64,000 nucleotides of DNA from a virus. The stretch is taken from IMG/VR virus record IMGVR_UViG_3300032087_002755; one strand, given 5' to 3'. Below are positions 3,462 through 11,757 of the stretch, piece after piece. Position numbers and translations under genes: made by a program. Under the pieces are notes generated by a model, which was not told the origin of the DNA, did no database searches, and worked only from the letters and a program-made list of their open reading frames with translations. Every line of letters starts with the position of its first letter. The first letter of the stretch is position 1.

Positions 3462-3469
3462 TATAAATA
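3462..3469 (+). promoter_or_regulatory. T4-type late promoter (gp55 -10 box)
   Basis: Exact TATAAATA upstream of a structural gene. Confidence 0.8.
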
Positions 3470-3505: not shown

Positions 3506-3766
3506 ATGGCAACACAAAATACATTCGTAATTGAGTATGGTTTAACAGTAGGTACTACTGAAATCATATCAAGTGCTGGTAAACTTGCTGCATCAGCATT
3601 ATCTTTATTAGATACAGATAATCTTGCAGAAGGGTCAGTGAATCAATACTTTTCAAACTCTCTCGCAAGGGGTGCTATATCACTTGCGTCAGGTGAAACA
3701 AATTTAAGTTATAATTCATCAAATGGTGAATTATCATTACCACAATTAGATGGAGGAACATTCTAA
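3506..3766 (+). CDS. Small tail-fibre-associated protein
   Basis: AGGAG RBS, 'DTDNLAEGSVNQYF' fibre motif, ends in LDGGTF. Confidence 0.65.
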   Translation: MATQNTFVIEYGLTVGTTEIISSAGKLAASALSLLDTDNLAEGSVNQYFSNSLARGAISLASGETNLSYNSSNGELSLPQLDGGTF

Positions 3767-5367
3767 TGACAGCTAAGAATTTTAATATCAAAAATGGTTT
3801 ATCCATTGGTGGTGTAGAGGTAATCGACTCCAGTGGTAATATTGCCGCAGGTGGAGTAGGTGCAGCGGTTCAAGAAGCAATCGCAGACAAAATCGGTTCG
3901 ATAATTCAAGGGTCAGGTTCAACAACCGTGACTTATGATGACGATGCTGATACAATTACAATCTCATCAACAGGAAAAACTGAAGAAGAAATACAAGATA
4001 TCATTGGTGCTGCTTTAGCAACTAATGGTACACATACTGGTTTATCAGTCGCATATGACGATGCTGGTGATGGTGCAATAGACATAACTGTAAGTCTTTC
4101 TTCATTCGATACAGATGCATTATCAGAAGGAAGTTCAAACCTTTATTATACAGATACAAGAGCAGACGCAAGAATTTCAAATGCAATACTAGATTCAGAT
4201 ACATTTACTGGTGCGTTATCTACTAACGTTCCTTCTGCTGAATCAACAAAAGCATATGTTGATGCACAAACAACAGACGAAACTGCAGAGGGGTCAACAA
4301 ACCTCTATTTTACAGATGCACGTGTGATGACTTCACTAGCAACTGTAGATGCACATATTGTACCAACTACAGACGTAACATACGACTTAGGTTCTTCTTC
4401 AAAACAATGGAGAGATATCTATGTCGGGCCAGGTTCATTATATGTTAATGGACAACAAGTGGTTTCAGACAACTCAGGAACAATTACTGTTTCTGCTGAT
4501 TCAGACCAAAATGTTAGTGTTCAAACAAGTGGTTCGGGTGATATCGAATTAGATGCAACTGGAACAGGTAATGTCCAAATTAAATCACCTATGCAGATAC
4601 AAGCTTCAAATGCTATATCTTCATCAGACGGAAATGCAATTCAATTCTCAAACTCAATTGACGTAGATGCAATCGAGTCAAGAAGTACAGACACTAACTT
4701 AGTGTTGACAGGAAATGGAACAGGTAATGTTACAATTAATGACTCTTTAGCAGTCACAGGTGACCTAACAGTTTCAGGAACTACAACAACTGTAAACTCA
4801 GAAACAATTTCACTTGCAGATAACATTATTGCATTAAACAGTAATTTCACTTCAGGTTCACCAACAGAAGACACTGGTATCAGTGTAACTCGTGGTGGTT
4901 CTGCTGCTAAGACACTTCTTTGGGACGAAACAAATGACAAATGGACAGTAGGTTCAGAAACTTTTGTTGCAGCCACTTTTGAAGGTGCATTAACAGGTAA
5001 TGTTACAGGAACAGTTTCAGGAAATGCTGGTTCAGCAACAATCTTAGAGTCAGCAAGAACAATTAGTTTAGGTGGTGACCTTTCGGGTTCTGCTTCATTC
5101 AATGGTTCTGCAGATATTTCAATCTCAGCAACAATTGCAGACGATTCTCATAATCACGTAATATCAAATGTAGACGGATTACAAACTGCATTAGATACAA
5201 AATATGAGAGTGGAGATAACGTATCATTAGGAACTATAGCTTCAGGTGCAATTACAATCACCAATGCAACGAATGCTGGTGGAACTGCAAGAAATATGTA
5301 CCAATCAACATCAGCTCCTGCTTCAGGTGATGGTGCAGTTGGTGATATGTGGATTCTTTACTCCTAA
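3766..5367 (+). CDS. Tail fibre protein
   Basis: 'TDALSEGSSNLYYTD.R' repeats, 'YDLGSSSKQWRDIY', and a C-terminal 'STSAP..GDG..GDMW' motif common in phage fibres. Confidence 0.8.
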   Translation: MTAKNFNIKNGLSIGGVEVIDSSGNIAAGGVGAAVQEAIADKIGSIIQGSGSTTVTYDDDADTITISSTGKTEEEIQDIIGAALATNGTHTGLSVAYDDAGDGAIDITVSLSSFDTDALSEGSSNLYYTDTRADARISNAILDSDTFTGALSTNVPSAESTKAYVDAQTTDETAEGSTNLYFTDARVMTSLATVDAHIVPTTDVTYDLGSSSKQWRDIYVGPGSLYVNGQQVVSDNSGTITVSADSDQNVSVQTSGSGDIELDATGTGNVQIKSPMQIQASNAISSSDGNAIQFSNSIDVDAIESRSTDTNLVLTGNGTGNVTINDSLAVTGDLTVSGTTTTVNSETISLADNIIALNSNFTSGSPTEDTGISVTRGGSAAKTLLWDETNDKWTVGSETFVAATFEGALTGNVTGTVSGNAGSATILESARTISLGGDLSGSASFNGSADISISATIADDSHNHVISNVDGLQTALDTKYESGDNVSLGTIASGAITITNATNAGGTARNMYQSTSAPASGDGAVGDMWILYS

Positions 5368-5386
5368 TACGGGGTAAAGTGTTGCA

Positions 5387-5394
5387 CATAAATA
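5387..5394 (+). promoter_or_regulatory. Late promoter variant (CATAAATA) for the repeat-protein pair
   Basis: CATAAATA lies upstream of the GGAG RBS and ATG 5421. Confidence 0.65.
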
Positions 5395-5420
5395 ATAGTA
5401 TGTTAACGGAGACAATATAA

Positions 5421-6074
5421 ATGGCTACAGGATTCTTTCAACAACCTAATTCGGGGTCAGCACAAACGGCGGTTAATGCACAAACACCGTTCACTTATAA
5501 TGCTAGATATCCAGCAAGTGCTCAGCAACCGTATACGTTCCAATCACCATTTACATATAGTGCAAGATATCCTGCGAATGCTCAACAACCGTTTACGTTC
5601 CAGTCACCATTTACATATAGGGTGCCTTATATTGCTAATGCAAGACAACCAGTAATTTATAGAAACCCATTTACATATAGGGTTCCATATATTGCAAATG
5701 CTAGACAACCAGTAATCTATCAACATAGGTCTCCTTTCACTTATAGAAATCCTGTATCTGCACAAGAACCTAATATCAGAAATGCACAAACACCTTTCAC
5801 TTACAGAAACCCAGTGAATGGTCAAGAACCTAACATTAGAAACGCACAAACACCTTTCACTTATAGAAACCCAGTGAATGGTCAAGAACCTAATATTAGA
5901 AATGCACAAACACCGTTTACGTATCAGAATAGACAACCATTTACGTATCAGAACAGACAACCGTTCACATATCAGAATAGACAACCTTCTACATATGCGA
6001 CACAAGGTAGAACGCCAGAAGCGAGATGGGACGGAGTAGTAACACAGCAGTGGCCTGCTCAACCAATAACATAG
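5421..6074 (+). CDS. Pro-periodic repeat protein A (putative fibre chain)
   Basis: Prolines recur every 6 or 8 residues (PFTY/PYIANARQ/PNIRNAQT units). The gene lies in the tail-fibre late operon. Confidence 0.75.
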   Translation: MATGFFQQPNSGSAQTAVNAQTPFTYNARYPASAQQPYTFQSPFTYSARYPANAQQPFTFQSPFTYRVPYIANARQPVIYRNPFTYRVPYIANARQPVIYQHRSPFTYRNPVSAQEPNIRNAQTPFTYRNPVNGQEPNIRNAQTPFTYRNPVNGQEPNIRNAQTPFTYQNRQPFTYQNRQPFTYQNRQPSTYATQGRTPEARWDGVVTQQWPAQPIT

Positions 6075-6816
6075 GAATAAGATAATGGCATCAGGAAATC
6101 AAAACGTCAAAACACCTACAGGTTGGAATGCAACACGTGGTGCATGGGTAAAAACACCAGCTGGTTGGAATGCAGTAGACCAAATATATGTAAAAACACC
6201 TTCAGGGTGGAATAATGCATCAGGACAAGAATTAACACAAATTCCATATCCTTACATTGCAAATGCTCAGAATCCTTATATTGCAGATGCACAACAACCG
6301 TATATTGCAAATGCACAACAACCATATATTGCAGATGCAAGACAACCGTCAACCTATCAACATAGGTCACCATTTACTTATCAAAACCCAAGTAATGCTA
6401 GACAACCTTCTACATATAGTCATAGGTCACCATTTACTTATCAAAACCCAAGTAATGCTAGACAACCGTCAACCTATCAACATAGGTCACCGTTCACTTA
6501 CAGAAATCCTGTAAATGCACAAGAACCTAATATAAGAAATAGACAGTCACCGTTCACTTATAGTGCTAGATATCCTGCGAATGCTCAGAGTCCTAGTAAT
6601 AAACAGTCACCATTTACATATAGTGCAAGGTATCCTGCGAATATTAGACAACCTAACAGTGCAAGGAACCCGTTCACATACAGAGTTCCATATATTGCTA
6701 ATGCTAGACAACCTAACAGTGCAAGGAATCCGTTTACATATCGTGTTCCATATATTGCTAATGCTAGACAACCTAACATTGCAAGGTCACCGTCAATCTA
6801 TAACTATAGATTCCCA
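5445..6816 (+). repeat. Degenerate 60-nt and 24-nt coding repeats shared by the two repeat genes
   Basis: 60-nt units at about 5763/5823/5883 and 6337/6397/6457, and 24-nt units at about 5912-5985 and 6250-6345. The cassette TCACCATTTACATATAGTGCAAG occurs in both genes. Confidence 0.9.
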
Positions 6817-6894
6817 ATGGTGTACTTCTATCAAACTGGTGGAGGAAATTTCTTACCACAGGGAGATGGTACGAAGAACGTGGGAGCTCTATAA
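6085..6894 (+). CDS. Pro-periodic repeat protein B with N-terminal triple VKTPxGW motif (putative partner fibre chain)
   Basis: Uses the same repeat vocabulary as protein A, and its proline spacing is the mirror image of A. Confidence 0.75.
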   Translation: MASGNQNVKTPTGWNATRGAWVKTPAGWNAVDQIYVKTPSGWNNASGQELTQIPYPYIANAQNPYIADAQQPYIANAQQPYIADARQPSTYQHRSPFTYQNPSNARQPSTYSHRSPFTYQNPSNARQPSTYQHRSPFTYRNPVNAQEPNIRNRQSPFTYSARYPANAQSPSNKQSPFTYSARYPANIRQPNSARNPFTYRVPYIANARQPNSARNPFTYRVPYIANARQPNIARSPSIYNYRFPMVYFYQTGGGNFLPQGDGTKNVGAL

Positions 6895-6913
6895 TCTCAT
6901 TCACAAATTTAAA

Positions 6914-6936
6914 AGGGACTTTCGAGTCCCTTTTTT
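6914..6936 (+). terminator. Rho-independent terminator
   Basis: AGGGACT-TTCG-AGTCCCT plus T-run, almost identical to the terminator after gp23. Confidence 0.9.
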
Positions 6937-6954
6937 GTATCCTAAATACATTGT

Positions 6955-8529
6955 ATGAAAAACTTGAAATACTATACAGAAGTTTTAGAAGAACTCAAAC
7001 CCGAAGATTGGGACTTTAAAACACTAACTACACAAGAATTATATCAAAAAGAAGATTATCACTTCGGTGCTTTTAATGATATACGAACCATAGACAAAGA
7101 TACTGAAGTATATAAATCCTTTAAATATGTCTTTGAGAACATTATACCACCCACAAAAATCATTAAGTGGGGAGATATTTTAGAATTACGTAAGAATAAA
7201 ACATTCATAGGATTCCAAGGAACTTCATTGGAAGCCATGCATTATCACAAATATTTACCACACGTATATACCGACAAAGAGAGAACTGGTAAACAGATAG
7301 GAAATATGGATTGTAAGACACCTGATGGTGAATATGCAGATATTACGGAATTCACACCTCTATTAACACAAGAACAGAAAGACCAAGACCATATAGGTAT
7401 ATCATTAAACTCTATGTATTATCATAGTGCAAAAGCACATTGGTTGGTTCAAAGTATACAAGAAGAAGGATTACGACACCCTATACAAGGAGTGACATTT
7501 AAAGTTGACGATAGATTTGGTTTTAGAATCCACCCAGGCTCTATTAGGTCTAAAGTGTTTGAAGAATTAGAAGACCCAAATTTCGAAATATTTGCAACAG
7601 ATATACACGATATCTTTGATTCAAAACCTTTGACTTGTGACGAGGTGTTAGAATATTGGTGTAAGAAACTAGAAGAGAGAAAAGATACTATCGGTAATTA
7701 TAACATGTCAGTAACACTATGTAATGGAAACATAGAATACAACCATGCATTAATGGATTTAGACTTTCGAAAAGAAGTTTGGGAACATAGTAAAAAAGCA
7801 ACACTTCAATCCAAAGGTAAACCTCTCAACATTTACATTGGGTATGATAGTAGCCATGGAGACTTACATGAAGTTAGTAAAGATTCAATTCTCAAAACTC
7901 TGAGTAACCAACACCTTGGACACTTAATTAAAGAAACAGAGTGGAAACCTGAGATTAAGTTTCTTGACATTTCCAAACTTCCCGATTATAATAGAGAGTA
8001 TGCAAATCAATCTACTGAATTTACTTATAGTAGATTCTTAATTCCACATTTAGAAAATTATGAAGGTTATAGTATTTTTATGGATAATGATTTCATATGG
8101 AGAAAATCTATACTACCTTTATTCTATTATTTGAACTTAGATGATGCAGTTGCATGTATTCAATACAAACAAATAGAACACGATGAAACCAAGTTTAATG
8201 GTGAGGTTAATATAGACTATCCGAAAAAACTATGGTCAAGTCTTATGGTATTCAATAATGGACATGAAGACTGTAAGAAATTAACACCCGAAGTAGTAAA
8301 CACTTGGACTGGAAAACAATTACACCAGTTTGAATGGACTGATAAGATTAGTAAAATACCCGAAAAGTATGTCTTTACTGAGGGGTATGATGACCCTGAT
8401 GAGAAATGGGATTATCATGGTATCCATTATACAAGGGGAGGCCCATGGGTAAAAGACATGGATTATTCCAACATAAATAACTTAGATGACTGGTTAACTG
8501 CAAAAACCAACTTGCAAAAAAACCAATAA
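6955..8529 (+). CDS. Two-domain protein: N-terminal unknown (ParB/Srx-like?) domain plus C-terminal GT-A glycosyltransferase
   Basis: The C-terminal half has IYIGYD, STEFTYSRFLIP, FMDNDF (DxD), WSSLMVFN, LHQFEW and HYTRGGPW, motifs of a phage/proteobacterial glycosyltransferase family. Confidence 0.75.
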   Translation: MKNLKYYTEVLEELKPEDWDFKTLTTQELYQKEDYHFGAFNDIRTIDKDTEVYKSFKYVFENIIPPTKIIKWGDILELRKNKTFIGFQGTSLEAMHYHKYLPHVYTDKERTGKQIGNMDCKTPDGEYADITEFTPLLTQEQKDQDHIGISLNSMYYHSAKAHWLVQSIQEEGLRHPIQGVTFKVDDRFGFRIHPGSIRSKVFEELEDPNFEIFATDIHDIFDSKPLTCDEVLEYWCKKLEERKDTIGNYNMSVTLCNGNIEYNHALMDLDFRKEVWEHSKKATLQSKGKPLNIYIGYDSSHGDLHEVSKDSILKTLSNQHLGHLIKETEWKPEIKFLDISKLPDYNREYANQSTEFTYSRFLIPHLENYEGYSIFMDNDFIWRKSILPLFYYLNLDDAVACIQYKQIEHDETKFNGEVNIDYPKKLWSSLMVFNNGHEDCKKLTPEVVNTWTGKQLHQFEWTDKISKIPEKYVFTEGYDDPDEKWDYHGIHYTRGGPWVKDMDYSNINNLDDWLTAKTNLQKNQ

Positions 8530-9121: not shown

Positions 9122-9868
9122 ATGGAACTCATTTACCATGATGAGTCCTTCAAGTTACAAGACATAGGATTCCCACTTAAAGACATTCACATTGTTGATA
9201 ATTGGTTACCTGTACAAATACACCATTGGATTGATAATACATTTTCTAGAAATCAAATATGGTCTAAACAAAACCAAGTGAATGCTGGTAGTCCTACTGG
9301 ATTACCTCATCATCAGTTTTGGGGTGTTGGACTCTTTGACGCTGGACGGAGTGGAAAGAAGTATGAATATCCTAATTTTGCAAAAGAGATGCACGAAGAT
9401 TCTTGGTCTGAGTTATATGATTGTAGAGCAGTCGCAAGATATTTAGATAGAAAATTACAAACAGACTTTGGTTTTAAGTGGGAAAGATTTCAATACATGG
9501 GACTGAATTCACAAACACAAGGTTTACACGGAACAACACATGCAGATTGTGAAGATGAAGATGAGTGGAATCTATCGTTTTTATATTATACCAATAAGTT
9601 TTGGGAGAAACATTGGGGAGGCCCTTTGAGAATATATGACGAAATGCAACAGGGTTTACATGGTCGTGCAAATCATATAAAGAATCACCAAATTGCAGAA
9701 ATAGAATTTAAACCAAATAGATTGTTAATATTTGACGGAAGAATACCACATGGTGCAGATGCACCTACACCCGAGGCACGTTATATGGACAGAAAGTCCA
9801 TAGTTATTAGAGGCGATGAAATTAGACTGGTAGAAGATGAGGAGTTTTTTAAACAATGCCCACGATAG
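9122..9868 (+). CDS. 2OG-Fe(II) oxygenase (prolyl-hydroxylase-like)
   Basis: HxD (THAD), distal H (IPHGA), R (RKSIV), WGG and 'PNRLLIFDG' motifs. Confidence 0.8.
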   Translation: MELIYHDESFKLQDIGFPLKDIHIVDNWLPVQIHHWIDNTFSRNQIWSKQNQVNAGSPTGLPHHQFWGVGLFDAGRSGKKYEYPNFAKEMHEDSWSELYDCRAVARYLDRKLQTDFGFKWERFQYMGLNSQTQGLHGTTHADCEDEDEWNLSFLYYTNKFWEKHWGGPLRIYDEMQQGLHGRANHIKNHQIAEIEFKPNRLLIFDGRIPHGADAPTPEARYMDRKSIVIRGDEIRLVEDEEFFKQCPR

Positions 9869-10752
9869 AATTTAACACATATAACGAACAAACACTTAAA
9901 GATGTAAAACCCGTTCTTGCAAAATCTGTTTCACCCGATTGGTGGAAACAGATGAAATTTAGTGAATATAATCGTGGAAATCTAATAACAACTATTCGTG
10001 CATGTCCAGCTATGGACGATTGGTTAAAAAGTGGTTGGTATTTACTTGCAAACAGAGATATGATTGTTAAGAATGGTAGTATTACAGATTCAGATGACGA
10101 TGATGAAATTTATATGTCAACACATGAATTTGGTGAAGGTTATGAACACCCTTCACCAGCACACCCTAGTGGTCAAATGGGATATGCATTTCAATATATT
10201 CCTGATGACGAAGCACCAATAAGGGGTGCATTTAAGTTTAGAAATCCATGGAATATTACAACACCGCCTGGATATTCTTGTTTATATCTAGACCCATTTC
10301 TATTTCAAAATAAATTCTTTGCAACATGGCAAGGTATTATTGATACAGACAAGTTTAATGCAAACTATGATAATGCACAAGTAATATTCTATCCTCGTGT
10401 TGGACATTCATTCGTTATACCAAAAGGAACACCTCTTTGTCAAATTATACCATATAAAAGAGAAGAATGGCAAGCCACATACCTTACGTATAAGTCTAAT
10501 GATTGGACAAAGAATAGAAGTCATATTACTAGTAACCGTGAAAATAAAACTATGGACGAGTTTTCAAGAGACCCAGCAACTTCTGATGAATATAGAAAAA
10601 ATGAAATGACAGTTGGTGGTTATCGTGGTGGTAATTTACATTCTAATAAAGGTAAACTATATAAACAAGAGAATCCACCACCCGAGTGTCCTTATCATGT
10701 AAGTGAGGATTCACCCGAAATACAATTGGAGTTAAACTTAAAAGATGATTAG
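9856..10752 (+). CDS. Conserved T4-like marine phage protein often found among 2OG-Fe(II) oxygenase genes
   Basis: 'CPAM.D', 'KF.NPW.I.TPPGYS.L', 'GIIDTD' and 'KGTPLCQIIP.KRE' motifs. Function unknown. Confidence 0.55.
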   Translation: MPTIEFNTYNEQTLKDVKPVLAKSVSPDWWKQMKFSEYNRGNLITTIRACPAMDDWLKSGWYLLANRDMIVKNGSITDSDDDDEIYMSTHEFGEGYEHPSPAHPSGQMGYAFQYIPDDEAPIRGAFKFRNPWNITTPPGYSCLYLDPFLFQNKFFATWQGIIDTDKFNANYDNAQVIFYPRVGHSFVIPKGTPLCQIIPYKREEWQATYLTYKSNDWTKNRSHITSNRENKTMDEFSRDPATSDEYRKNEMTVGGYRGGNLHSNKGKLYKQENPPPECPYHVSEDSPEIQLELNLKDD

Positions 10753-11461
10753 ATTATTATTCCCATATGTCTGTATTGAAAGAGACCTTTTAAAAGAAGG
10801 TGCAATCAGTGAAGACTATATTAAAATTCTCAAAGACGCTGTGGACGGAATGAGAAAGAAAGACACAGTTGGTAGAAGTATTTCTAATCAATACACTGGT
10901 TGGCAGTCAAATGATGGTTGTGAAAGTCACCCAGCATTTCAAAAAATAATGAGGATAATTAAAAACACTTTTGATACTGAATTATTAGATTGGAATGGAC
11001 TTGATAGAGGACAGGTTCAACTAACAATGGGTAATTCATGGGCAAACATAAACGACAATACAGCATGGAATGCTCCACACTTACACAATGGTTGTTGGTA
11101 TAGTGGTGTGTTCTATATCCATGCAGATGGAGACGAAGGAGACTTTATAGCAGTTGATAAAGACCCAAAAGTGGTATCAGACTTTCCACATTCACCAAGA
11201 GAACAAGCAAATTTTAAAGTATCACCAACAACTGGTACATTGTTTCTATTTCCAAGTGGTTTGATGCATATGGTGGAACCCAATATGACTCAAAAAGATA
11301 GATATAGTATTTCCTTCAATATGAATGTCACCTACTTAACTGCTGGTCTACAAGCTAGATTAGGGAATCCTAAAGGATATCACCCCGATGAACTTACTTT
11401 TACTACAGACGAAGACGGGAAATTAGTTCATTTATTTCCACAATTAAACAGTAACGACTAA
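10745..11461 (+). CDS. Putative 2OG-Fe(II) oxygenase (TIGR02466-like)
   Basis: 'SWANIN', 'HLH...SGVFY', 'LFPSGLMHMVEPN' and 'RYSISFN' motifs. Confidence 0.8.
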   Translation: MIRLLFPYVCIERDLLKEGAISEDYIKILKDAVDGMRKKDTVGRSISNQYTGWQSNDGCESHPAFQKIMRIIKNTFDTELLDWNGLDRGQVQLTMGNSWANINDNTAWNAPHLHNGCWYSGVFYIHADGDEGDFIAVDKDPKVVSDFPHSPREQANFKVSPTTGTLFLFPSGLMHMVEPNMTQKDRYSISFNMNVTYLTAGLQARLGNPKGYHPDELTFTTDEDGKLVHLFPQLNSND

Positions 11462-11749: not shown

Positions 11750-11757
11750 TATAAATA
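11750..11757 (+). promoter_or_regulatory. T4-type late promoter
   Basis: TATAAATA upstream of gp13. Confidence 0.8.

Follow-up and report, generated by a model that had tools for sequence, protein, structure and literature searches.

Within the 64,000-nucleotide (nt) stretch of viral DNA analysed here (the window, from IMG/VR virus record IMGVR_UViG_3300032087_002755), two adjacent genes, designated A and B (Table 1), encode proline-punctuated repeat proteins whose proline registers are mirror images of each other. The two proteins present the same succession of intervals when one is read backwards, units of opposite type face each other in this arrangement, and the relation is maintained in homologous gene pairs whose repeat arrays have grown or shrunk together. 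As far as can be judged from sequence, A and B quite probably build an antiparallel, register-coded A:B hetero-oligomeric fibre shaft. An antiparallel, register-matched two-chain fibre had been proposed in an earlier note on this DNA, and the co-variation described below for homologous pairs supports that proposal; its finer points, namely the exact geometry of a two-stranded beta-ribbon with proline kinks, a 1:1 stoichiometry and a place as distal fibre or needle, are conjectural.

When the translations are split at their prolines, A (prolines 9, 23 and onwards to 199) gives an interval of 14 residues, then 8,6,6,8,6,6,6,8,6,6,8,8,6,6,8,6,6,8,6,6,8,8,8,8 and finally 10, and B (prolines 54, 56 and onwards to 244) gives 2,8, then 8,8,8,8,6,6,8,6,6,8,6,6,8,8,6,6,8,6,6,6,8,6,6,8 and finally 6,8. 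The 24 central intervals of B are those of A in reverse order, the flanks correspond as well (10=2+8 and 14=6+8), and the spans from P9 to P199 in A and from P54 to P244 in B each cover 190 residues. This mirror had been described previously, and it proved exact on re-translation, flanks and spans included. A reverse match of 24 intervals was also rare under shuffling, a control put forward together with the original description, since it appeared in none of 20,000 interval shuffles and in one of 20,000 module shuffles; when whole tandem arrays were permuted it was found in 6 of 720 arrangements. Taken for this single pair, the mirror is significant, not overwhelming.

A symmetry of this kind might in principle belong to the nucleic acid rather than to the proteins, as a DNA or RNA inverted repeat or as antisense coding, or it might be an assembly artefact, and long open reading frames (ORFs) do occur on the minus strand over the repeats. 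The region 5380-6940, however, contains zero inverted repeats, in agreement with what the earlier note had stated; its repeats are all direct, and the motifs common to A and B stand in the same reading direction in both genes. Furthermore, the plus-strand ORFs are kept at 43-97% amino-acid identity in more than 60 independent contigs, and an identical sequence was recovered in two other sequencing runs, which leaves this explanation a practically negligible probability. Sense-antisense peptide coding was considered separately and rejected, given that no inverted repeat is present and that the PFTY-unit codons, when reverse-complemented, do not specify the units that face them.

The evidence with the greatest weight comes from homologues. 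In IMG/VR, relatives of B were found at 249 loci and relatives of A at 217, and these yielded 63 distinct A/B pairs, with A ranging from 190 to 559 amino acids (aa) and B from 247 to 739 aa, and with 41 distinct architectures of A. The two proteins are encoded by separate genes in all 63 pairs. When the interval strings were placed side by side, the reversed string of A matched that of B over almost the whole core in nearly every pair, with "10,8" in A being systematically equivalent to "2,8,8" in B. In one ungapped register, the mean proline coincidence reached 89% for the antiparallel arrangement against 57% for the parallel one and 56% for non-cognate A/B combinations. The antiparallel register was superior to the parallel one in each of the 63 pairs, the cognate B ranked best among the 63 B proteins for 51 of the 63 A proteins, and the register constant was 35-36 in 55 pairs.

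Core lengths were also measured between independent anchors, namely from Met1 to the proline before R-W-D-G in A and from the P-x-P that follows the GW repeats to the G-G-G motif in B. By this measure the two cores are 198 residues long each in the window, and across the family their lengths were correlated with a Spearman coefficient of 0.99, differing by at most 5 residues in 30 of the 36 measurable pairs over a range of 170-520 residues. A tree built for the 524-aa neighbour provided 17 path-disjoint pairs with differing A length, in which the length of B changed in the same direction in 15, in the opposite direction in one and not at all in one (r = 0.94). The mirroring of repeat gains and losses of A in B across homologous pairs, which had been singled out as the decisive check of the two-chain proposal, was thus borne out both by the 63 antiparallel registers and by these 15 of 17 independent comparisons.

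The match extends from spacing to the nature of the units. These fall into two classes, one with an aromatic residue at position +3 (F, of the P-F-T-Y kind) and one without it (N, comprising P-x-N-A-x-Q, P-Y-I-A-N-A-x-Q and P-N-I-R-N-A-Q-T). Opposite classes face each other in all 24 cases in the window and in 1846 of 1948 (95%) family-wide, against 989 expected from the class frequencies. When the complementation of A units was scored for different arrangements, it amounted to 88% for A:B antiparallel, 35% for A:A, 37% for B:B, 33% for the parallel orientation and 34% for non-cognate pairs. The pairing relation is therefore both hetero-specific and partner-specific, as the alternatives all lie between 33% and 37%.

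Facing units are in addition coupled at the level of residues. Mutual information between them is confined to odd positions and follows an antiparallel topology, with z-scores in 8-residue units of 51 for F5-N3, 44 for F5-N1, 36 for F7-N3, 35 for F1-N5, 29 for F7-N1 and 27 for F1-N7, a result that is not fully independent of the mirror itself. The even positions F4 and N4 are as variable as the odd ones, yet uncoupled. In the proline-to-proline register, Arg and Ile form a facing couple in 1007 of 1035 cases, and the couples that are nearly fixed or co-varying are Tyr:Ala/Gly, Thr:Gln/Arg, Arg:Ile, His:Arg, Asn:Ala, Ala:Ala, Ser:Asn, Gln:Tyr and Tyr:Tyr. Proline spacings in the cores are overwhelmingly even (family-wide, 2511 even and 144 odd in A, 2803 even and 68 odd in B), and the odd ones belong, with few exceptions, to conserved intervals at the termini and anchors (13, 3 and 7 in A; 15 in B). 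All-even spacing together with odd-only coupling would fit, without proving it, a packing of extended beta-like chains side by side with their specificity on one face.

From these observations we infer that A and B bind each other physically and are present in the virion as a tail fibre. In the proposed model, the two chains would lie side by side in opposite directions, residue i of A facing approximately residue 252-i of B and proline facing proline, so that each unit of A would meet a unit of B of equal length (6, 8 or 10 residues) and opposite type. An aromatic P-F-T-Y-x-x unit would stand opposite a polar P-x-N-A-x-Q, P-Y-I-A-N-A-x-Q or P-N-I-R-N-A-Q-T unit. The chains would be extended and beta-like, with specificity residing on the odd-position face (Tyr:Ala/Gly and Arg:Ile, plus the co-varying His:Arg, Asn:Ala, Ser:Asn and Gln/Tyr:Tyr). 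The GW-hairpin head of B and the RWDG tail of A would come together at one end, presumably that of attachment, and the N-terminus of A would join the variable C-terminus of B at the other, presumably distal end. Three AB pairs may associate in the manner of trimeric fibres. A fully extended rod would measure about 60 nm here and up to roughly threefold that length in relatives.

The number of repeats would set the length of such a fibre, which is why an expansion or deletion in one gene would call for compensation by the other: repeat slippage on one side would leave a bulge, to be followed by a compensating change in the partner gene. With a somewhat better than even chance of being correct, the pair can be regarded as a protein analogue of nucleic-acid strand complementarity, in which a unit alphabet (6F:6N, 8F:8N, 10F:2+8N) and residue pairing rules specify a register-specific antiparallel heteroduplex of arbitrary length, with fibre length evolving by slippage in one gene and subsequent compensatory change in the other.

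The same repeats could conceivably serve A and B separately. Each protein would then assemble on its own, for example as a homotrimeric beta-helix or beta-solenoid fibre with 18-22 residues per turn and prolines at the corners, and the mirror would be a by-product of the shuffling of shared modules. The two proteins do share modules directly and in the same orientation, and the sums of 20 (8+6+6) and 18 (10+8, 2+8+8) residues seem to resemble solenoid coil lengths. Separate assembly leaves unexplained, however, the reversed order of the modules between the two genes, the far better matching of cognate than of non-cognate pairs, the opposite type of 95% of the facing units and the compensation of length changes in 15 of 17 independent comparisons. 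Moreover, neither protein was predicted by AlphaFold2 (AF2) to fold alone, with predicted local distance difference test (pLDDT) values of 33 for A and 37 for B and no usable model from the single chains; the stable folding of either protein by itself had been listed beforehand as a point that would count against the two-chain fibre, and this outcome speaks for the latter as weak evidence. Overall, independent assembly of A and B appears very unlikely.

Some observations nevertheless weigh against a register-coded A:B fibre. The first concerns the window itself, where A (5487-5720) and B (6550-6790) have a block in common that consists of two 8-6-6 modules ("PFTYSARY-PANAQQ-PFTFQS") followed by two 6-8-6 modules ("PFTYRV-PYIANARQ-PxxxRN"). 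The two module types complement each other, which makes the block self-complementary, like a palindromic DNA site. Eleven of the 24 mirrored intervals stem from this directly homologous block with its palindromic spacing; the evidence from the single pair is therefore weaker than "24 of 24" would suggest, and it is the comparative data that carry the weight. Through the same block, local A:A or B:B pairing, or intrachain hairpins, would be conceivable.

Second, five of the 63 pairs (L013, L046, L141, L142 and L144) are out of balance. By the anchor measure, the imbalance in L013, L141, L142 and L144 is 20, 44 or 88 aa, which equals exactly one or two repeat blocks, and L046, which is not measurable by anchors, is an outlier only through its low proline coincidence of 0.70. 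The most probable cause is that tandem repeats collapsed in short-read assembly, because near-identical sibling contigs hold the balanced version (L124 for L142 and L144, L106 for L141). Should the five pairs be real, strict register matching would not be obligatory. An apparent sixth exception, L159, was resolved by a GTG start 89 codons upstream. Third, no natural B-A fusion (a "Rosetta stone" protein) was found among 145 retrieved relatives, and fourth, the fibre gains no structural backing from AF2, whose single-chain predictions gave no confident model for either protein.

In the window, the genes are placed in different frames of the plus strand, 10 nt apart, and each has a Shine-Dalgarno site. 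The repeat cores are bordered by conserved elements. In the tail of A, the invariant alignment columns are R202, W203, D204, W211, P212 and P215. The head of B was modelled by AF2 as three beta-hairpins, with strands at residues 7-44 and a pLDDT of about 55. The B protein of the window ends shortly after G-G-G-N-F and has no Hint domain. Many B homologues of 375-540 aa, on the other hand, end in a Hint/intein-like domain placed directly after a poly-Gly run, in which G-G-G-G is followed by C-F-V-A-G-T-P and, further on, by V-V-A-H-N and a non-nucleophilic residue. The best relatives of this domain in the PDB are 6TMM and 6Y75. Its sequence suggests a self-cleaving, possibly ligating, C-terminal module, which would lie at the fibre end adjoining the N-terminus of A.

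Units of the PFTY/PNIR kind were also observed in a wider, unnamed set of viral proteins of 470-700 aa (P0121-P0131), which start with M-S-D-D-I-F-I-K and carry other C-terminal domains after the units, some of them Hint domains. Use of this alphabet is thus not restricted to A and B.

The surroundings of the pair are those of tail-fibre genes. In every locus the gene order is orf-orf-TF1-TF2-(A,B or B,A)-g524-g186-oxygenase-g298, with TF2 always immediately upstream of the pair and with both TF1 and TF2 matching tail-fibre PHROGs. The order within the pair is A-B in the clade of the window (11 distinct pairs) and B-A in all others, the flanking genes being unchanged, and in several B-A loci the two genes are separated by a gap of about 300 nt. 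The earlier note had located the pair between a tail-fibre gene and a terminator under a late promoter. A tail-fibre-like gene does lie upstream, and folding confirms the terminator at 6915-6936, which a sigma-70/terminator pattern scan had missed; the promoter was placed imprecisely, as only 7-of-8 matches to TATAAATA occur directly before A and the exact motif is at 3462. This motif is present 15 times in the window against 6 expected, 14 times on the plus strand and mostly just upstream of structural genes (for example at 11750, 16503, 19079 and 21755), which is consistent with T4-type late promoters. With an exact late motif on the 5' side, small or overlapping gaps between the genes and a strong terminator on the 3' side, orf86, TF2, A and B are likely to form one late transcription unit starting from the motif at 3462. 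Its first gene, the 86-aa ORF, may encode a small fibre-associated protein.

Table 1. Coordinates of the A/B pair, its parts and its transcriptional surroundings in the window, with examples of Hint-bearing B homologues
Feature	Position	Strand	Description
Late-promoter motif TATAAATA	3462-3469	+	Exact T4-type motif, nearest exact one upstream of A; assigned by position only
orf86	3506-3766	+	86-aa ORF; Shine-Dalgarno site; stop overlaps the TF2 start
TF2	3766-5367	+	533-aa tail-fibre-like protein; PHROG tail-fibre and long-tail-fibre-distal-subunit families
Gene A	5421-6074	+	217 aa; proline-punctuated repeat protein without N-terminal domain; GGAG 10-13 nt upstream
A repeat core (P23-P199)	5487-6017	+	24 units of 6 or 8 residues and one of 10
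A C-terminal tail	6015-6071	+	P-E-A-R-W-D-G...W-P..P-I-T; conserved; would face the third GW repeat of B in the antiparallel register
Gene B	6085-6894	+	269 aa; partner repeat protein
B N-terminal head	6106-6216	+	Three 14-residue V-K-T-P-x-G-W repeats; direct DNA repeats; near-invariant columns
B repeat core (P54-P244)	6244-6816	+	Mirror and type-complement of the A core
Intrinsic terminator	6915-6936	+	GGGACT-TTCG-AGTCCC and six T; folding -13.6 kcal/mol, z = -3.8
Hint-bearing B homologues	L019:4522-5721; L080:4001-5614		Proteins P0001-P0004, P0019-P0020

This location invites a further explanation, in which A would help B to assemble as a template or chaperone matched to it in register (a "ruler"), pairing with it transiently during folding and being absent from the virion; T4 gp38/gp57A are comparable as helpers of fibre assembly. 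In T4-type phages, fibre chaperones or adhesins are located downstream of the distal fibre gene, which is where A and B are found. The build of the proteins could point in the same direction, as A has no terminal domain other than its 19-residue tail and B has a head and often a C-terminal domain. A chaperone of this kind would nonetheless need the same antiparallel, register-coded binding, and the one-to-one matching over the full length, together with the conserved tail of A facing the head of B, looks more like the mark of a permanent partner. A search of Pfam and PHROGs revealed no similarity to known chaperones either. A role of A as a transient template is accordingly judged unlikely, and a shaft in which both proteins persist is preferred.

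Downstream of the pair, the conserved neighbours include the 524-aa protein (6955-8529) and two 2-oxoglutarate-Fe(II) oxygenases (9122-9868 and 10745-11461). In its C-terminal half, the 524-aa protein is similar to nucleotide-diphospho-sugar transferases, with 30-38% identity to annotated glycosyltransferases, and the oxygenases match PF13640, a family that includes prolyl hydroxylases, and PF13759. It would be conceivable that the regularly spaced prolines of A and B are hydroxylated or glycosylated by these neighbouring enzymes.

The proposed shaft can be compared with several known systems. In the T4 gp37 needle, as Bartual et al. are said to have described in 2010, the strands run out and back, so that N- and C-proximal parts face each other antiparallel and in register. 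The likeness is that of a phage fibre segment made from long, extended, antiparallel, in-register strands. In gp37, however, both strands belong to one chain and cover about 15 nm, whereas the A/B cores, of 170-540 residues, come from two genes and show a proline-punctuated unit alphabet and compensatory evolution of repeat number. The gp37 needle (PDB 2XGF) is trimeric, and seven iron atoms coordinated by His are spaced along it (PMC6957217). Its HxH iron motif is found in neither A nor B, which have one and three His residues, respectively, all in Q/S-H-R-S.

The triple beta-spiral shafts of adenovirus and reovirus are made of pseudo-repeats of about 15-20 residues in a single homotrimeric chain, unlike the 6/8/10-residue units and two mirror-complementary chains seen here. 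Collagen-like phage fibres consist of Gly-X-Y triplets, whereas the A/B cores have no Gly periodicity and a proline spacing of 6 or 8, not 3. Outside phages, the stalk of the streptococcal antigen I/II (SpaP/SspB) combines Ala-rich and Pro-rich repeats that are matched in number and pair antiparallel along their whole length. That stalk belongs to a bacterial adhesin and is intramolecular, with an alpha-helix wound around a polyproline-II helix and repeats of 82 and 39 residues, in contrast with the two chains, 6/8/10 units and even spacing of A and B. The coiled-coil arms of SMC/Rad50 and the spectrin alpha/beta heterodimer are further cases in which irregularities are mirrored in the antiparallel partner strand and strand lengths co-vary. 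These are alpha-helical, the SMC arms are intramolecular, no code of unit-type complementarity is involved and none is a viral fibre.

The PDB, searched with profiles built from the alignments of A and B, gave no match to the repeat cores at E <= 1 and only hits to the Hint domain of the longer B homologues, and the fibre-shaft families of Pfam and PHROG matched neither protein. The sole library family to be matched was Pfam PF10511 (Cementoin, the trappin transglutaminase-substrate repeats), with 35.1 bits for A (cut-off 27) over residues 111-137 only and 9.8 bits for B (E 0.8). Cementoin is a mammalian 6-residue repeat whose likeness to A is that of a short Gln- and Pro-rich repeat and extends to one A module type only, so that the match is most likely compositional. 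None of 266 database relatives of B is a named protein. The look-alikes in the ESM Atlas are the proteins' own unnamed viral clusters only; gp38 was discarded as a candidate there, its TM value of 0.28 not being meaningful. A search of the full-text literature, with most subscription journals outside its reach, found no description of such a fibre, and a described precedent for the A/B design could not be found.

The window belongs to a T4-like myovirus, as indicated by the gp13/14-like connector, sheath stabiliser, sheath, portal and capsid genes downstream. The closest cultured relatives, Methylophilales phage Melnitz and the Pelagibacter phages HTVC008M and Mosig, share 64-66% identity with it in the major capsid protein and encode neither A nor B. 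No A/B homologue was found by blastn or tblastn among 50,697 cultured-phage records, and a match to a Streptococcus phage was rejected as spurious and due to low complexity.

A total of 14 DNA runs, stemming from about ten studies of marine, estuarine and biofilm samples, contain 96-98% of the words sampled from the stretch, and contigs from two of these runs, which belong to other studies and are not flagged as possible sources, tile it with zero differences. The bins at 6383-6439 were uncovered in every run and contigs break at the repeat borders, so these runs can neither bridge the arrays nor confirm the copy number of the repeats. Identical A and B fragments are present in metatranscriptome assemblies of two studies; this is compatible with expression of the pair, as weak evidence, since DNA carry-over may also account for it. 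A metatranscriptome contig from run X15 lacks exactly 60 nt at 5774-5835, that is, one 20-residue module of A, and differs in three other letters. It may derive from a related strain one module shorter or from assembly collapse.

The A/B pair is a rare case in which a protein-protein contact may be inferred from the co-variation of repeat architecture alone. If the proposed shaft is real, it would represent a new fibre architecture, in which the register of a heteroduplex is written in a complementarity code at the level of units and is maintained by compensatory repeat evolution between two genes. The more than 40 natural "designs" would allow the residue pairing rules to be read, the code would be usable for programmable fibre design, and the pair would offer a simple and testable scaffold on which rigid rods of protein could be engineered to a programmed length. 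For the phages themselves, it would explain how abundant uncultured marine myophages, relatives of those infecting SAR11 and OM43, build and retune a fibre of about 170 to 540 residues per strand.

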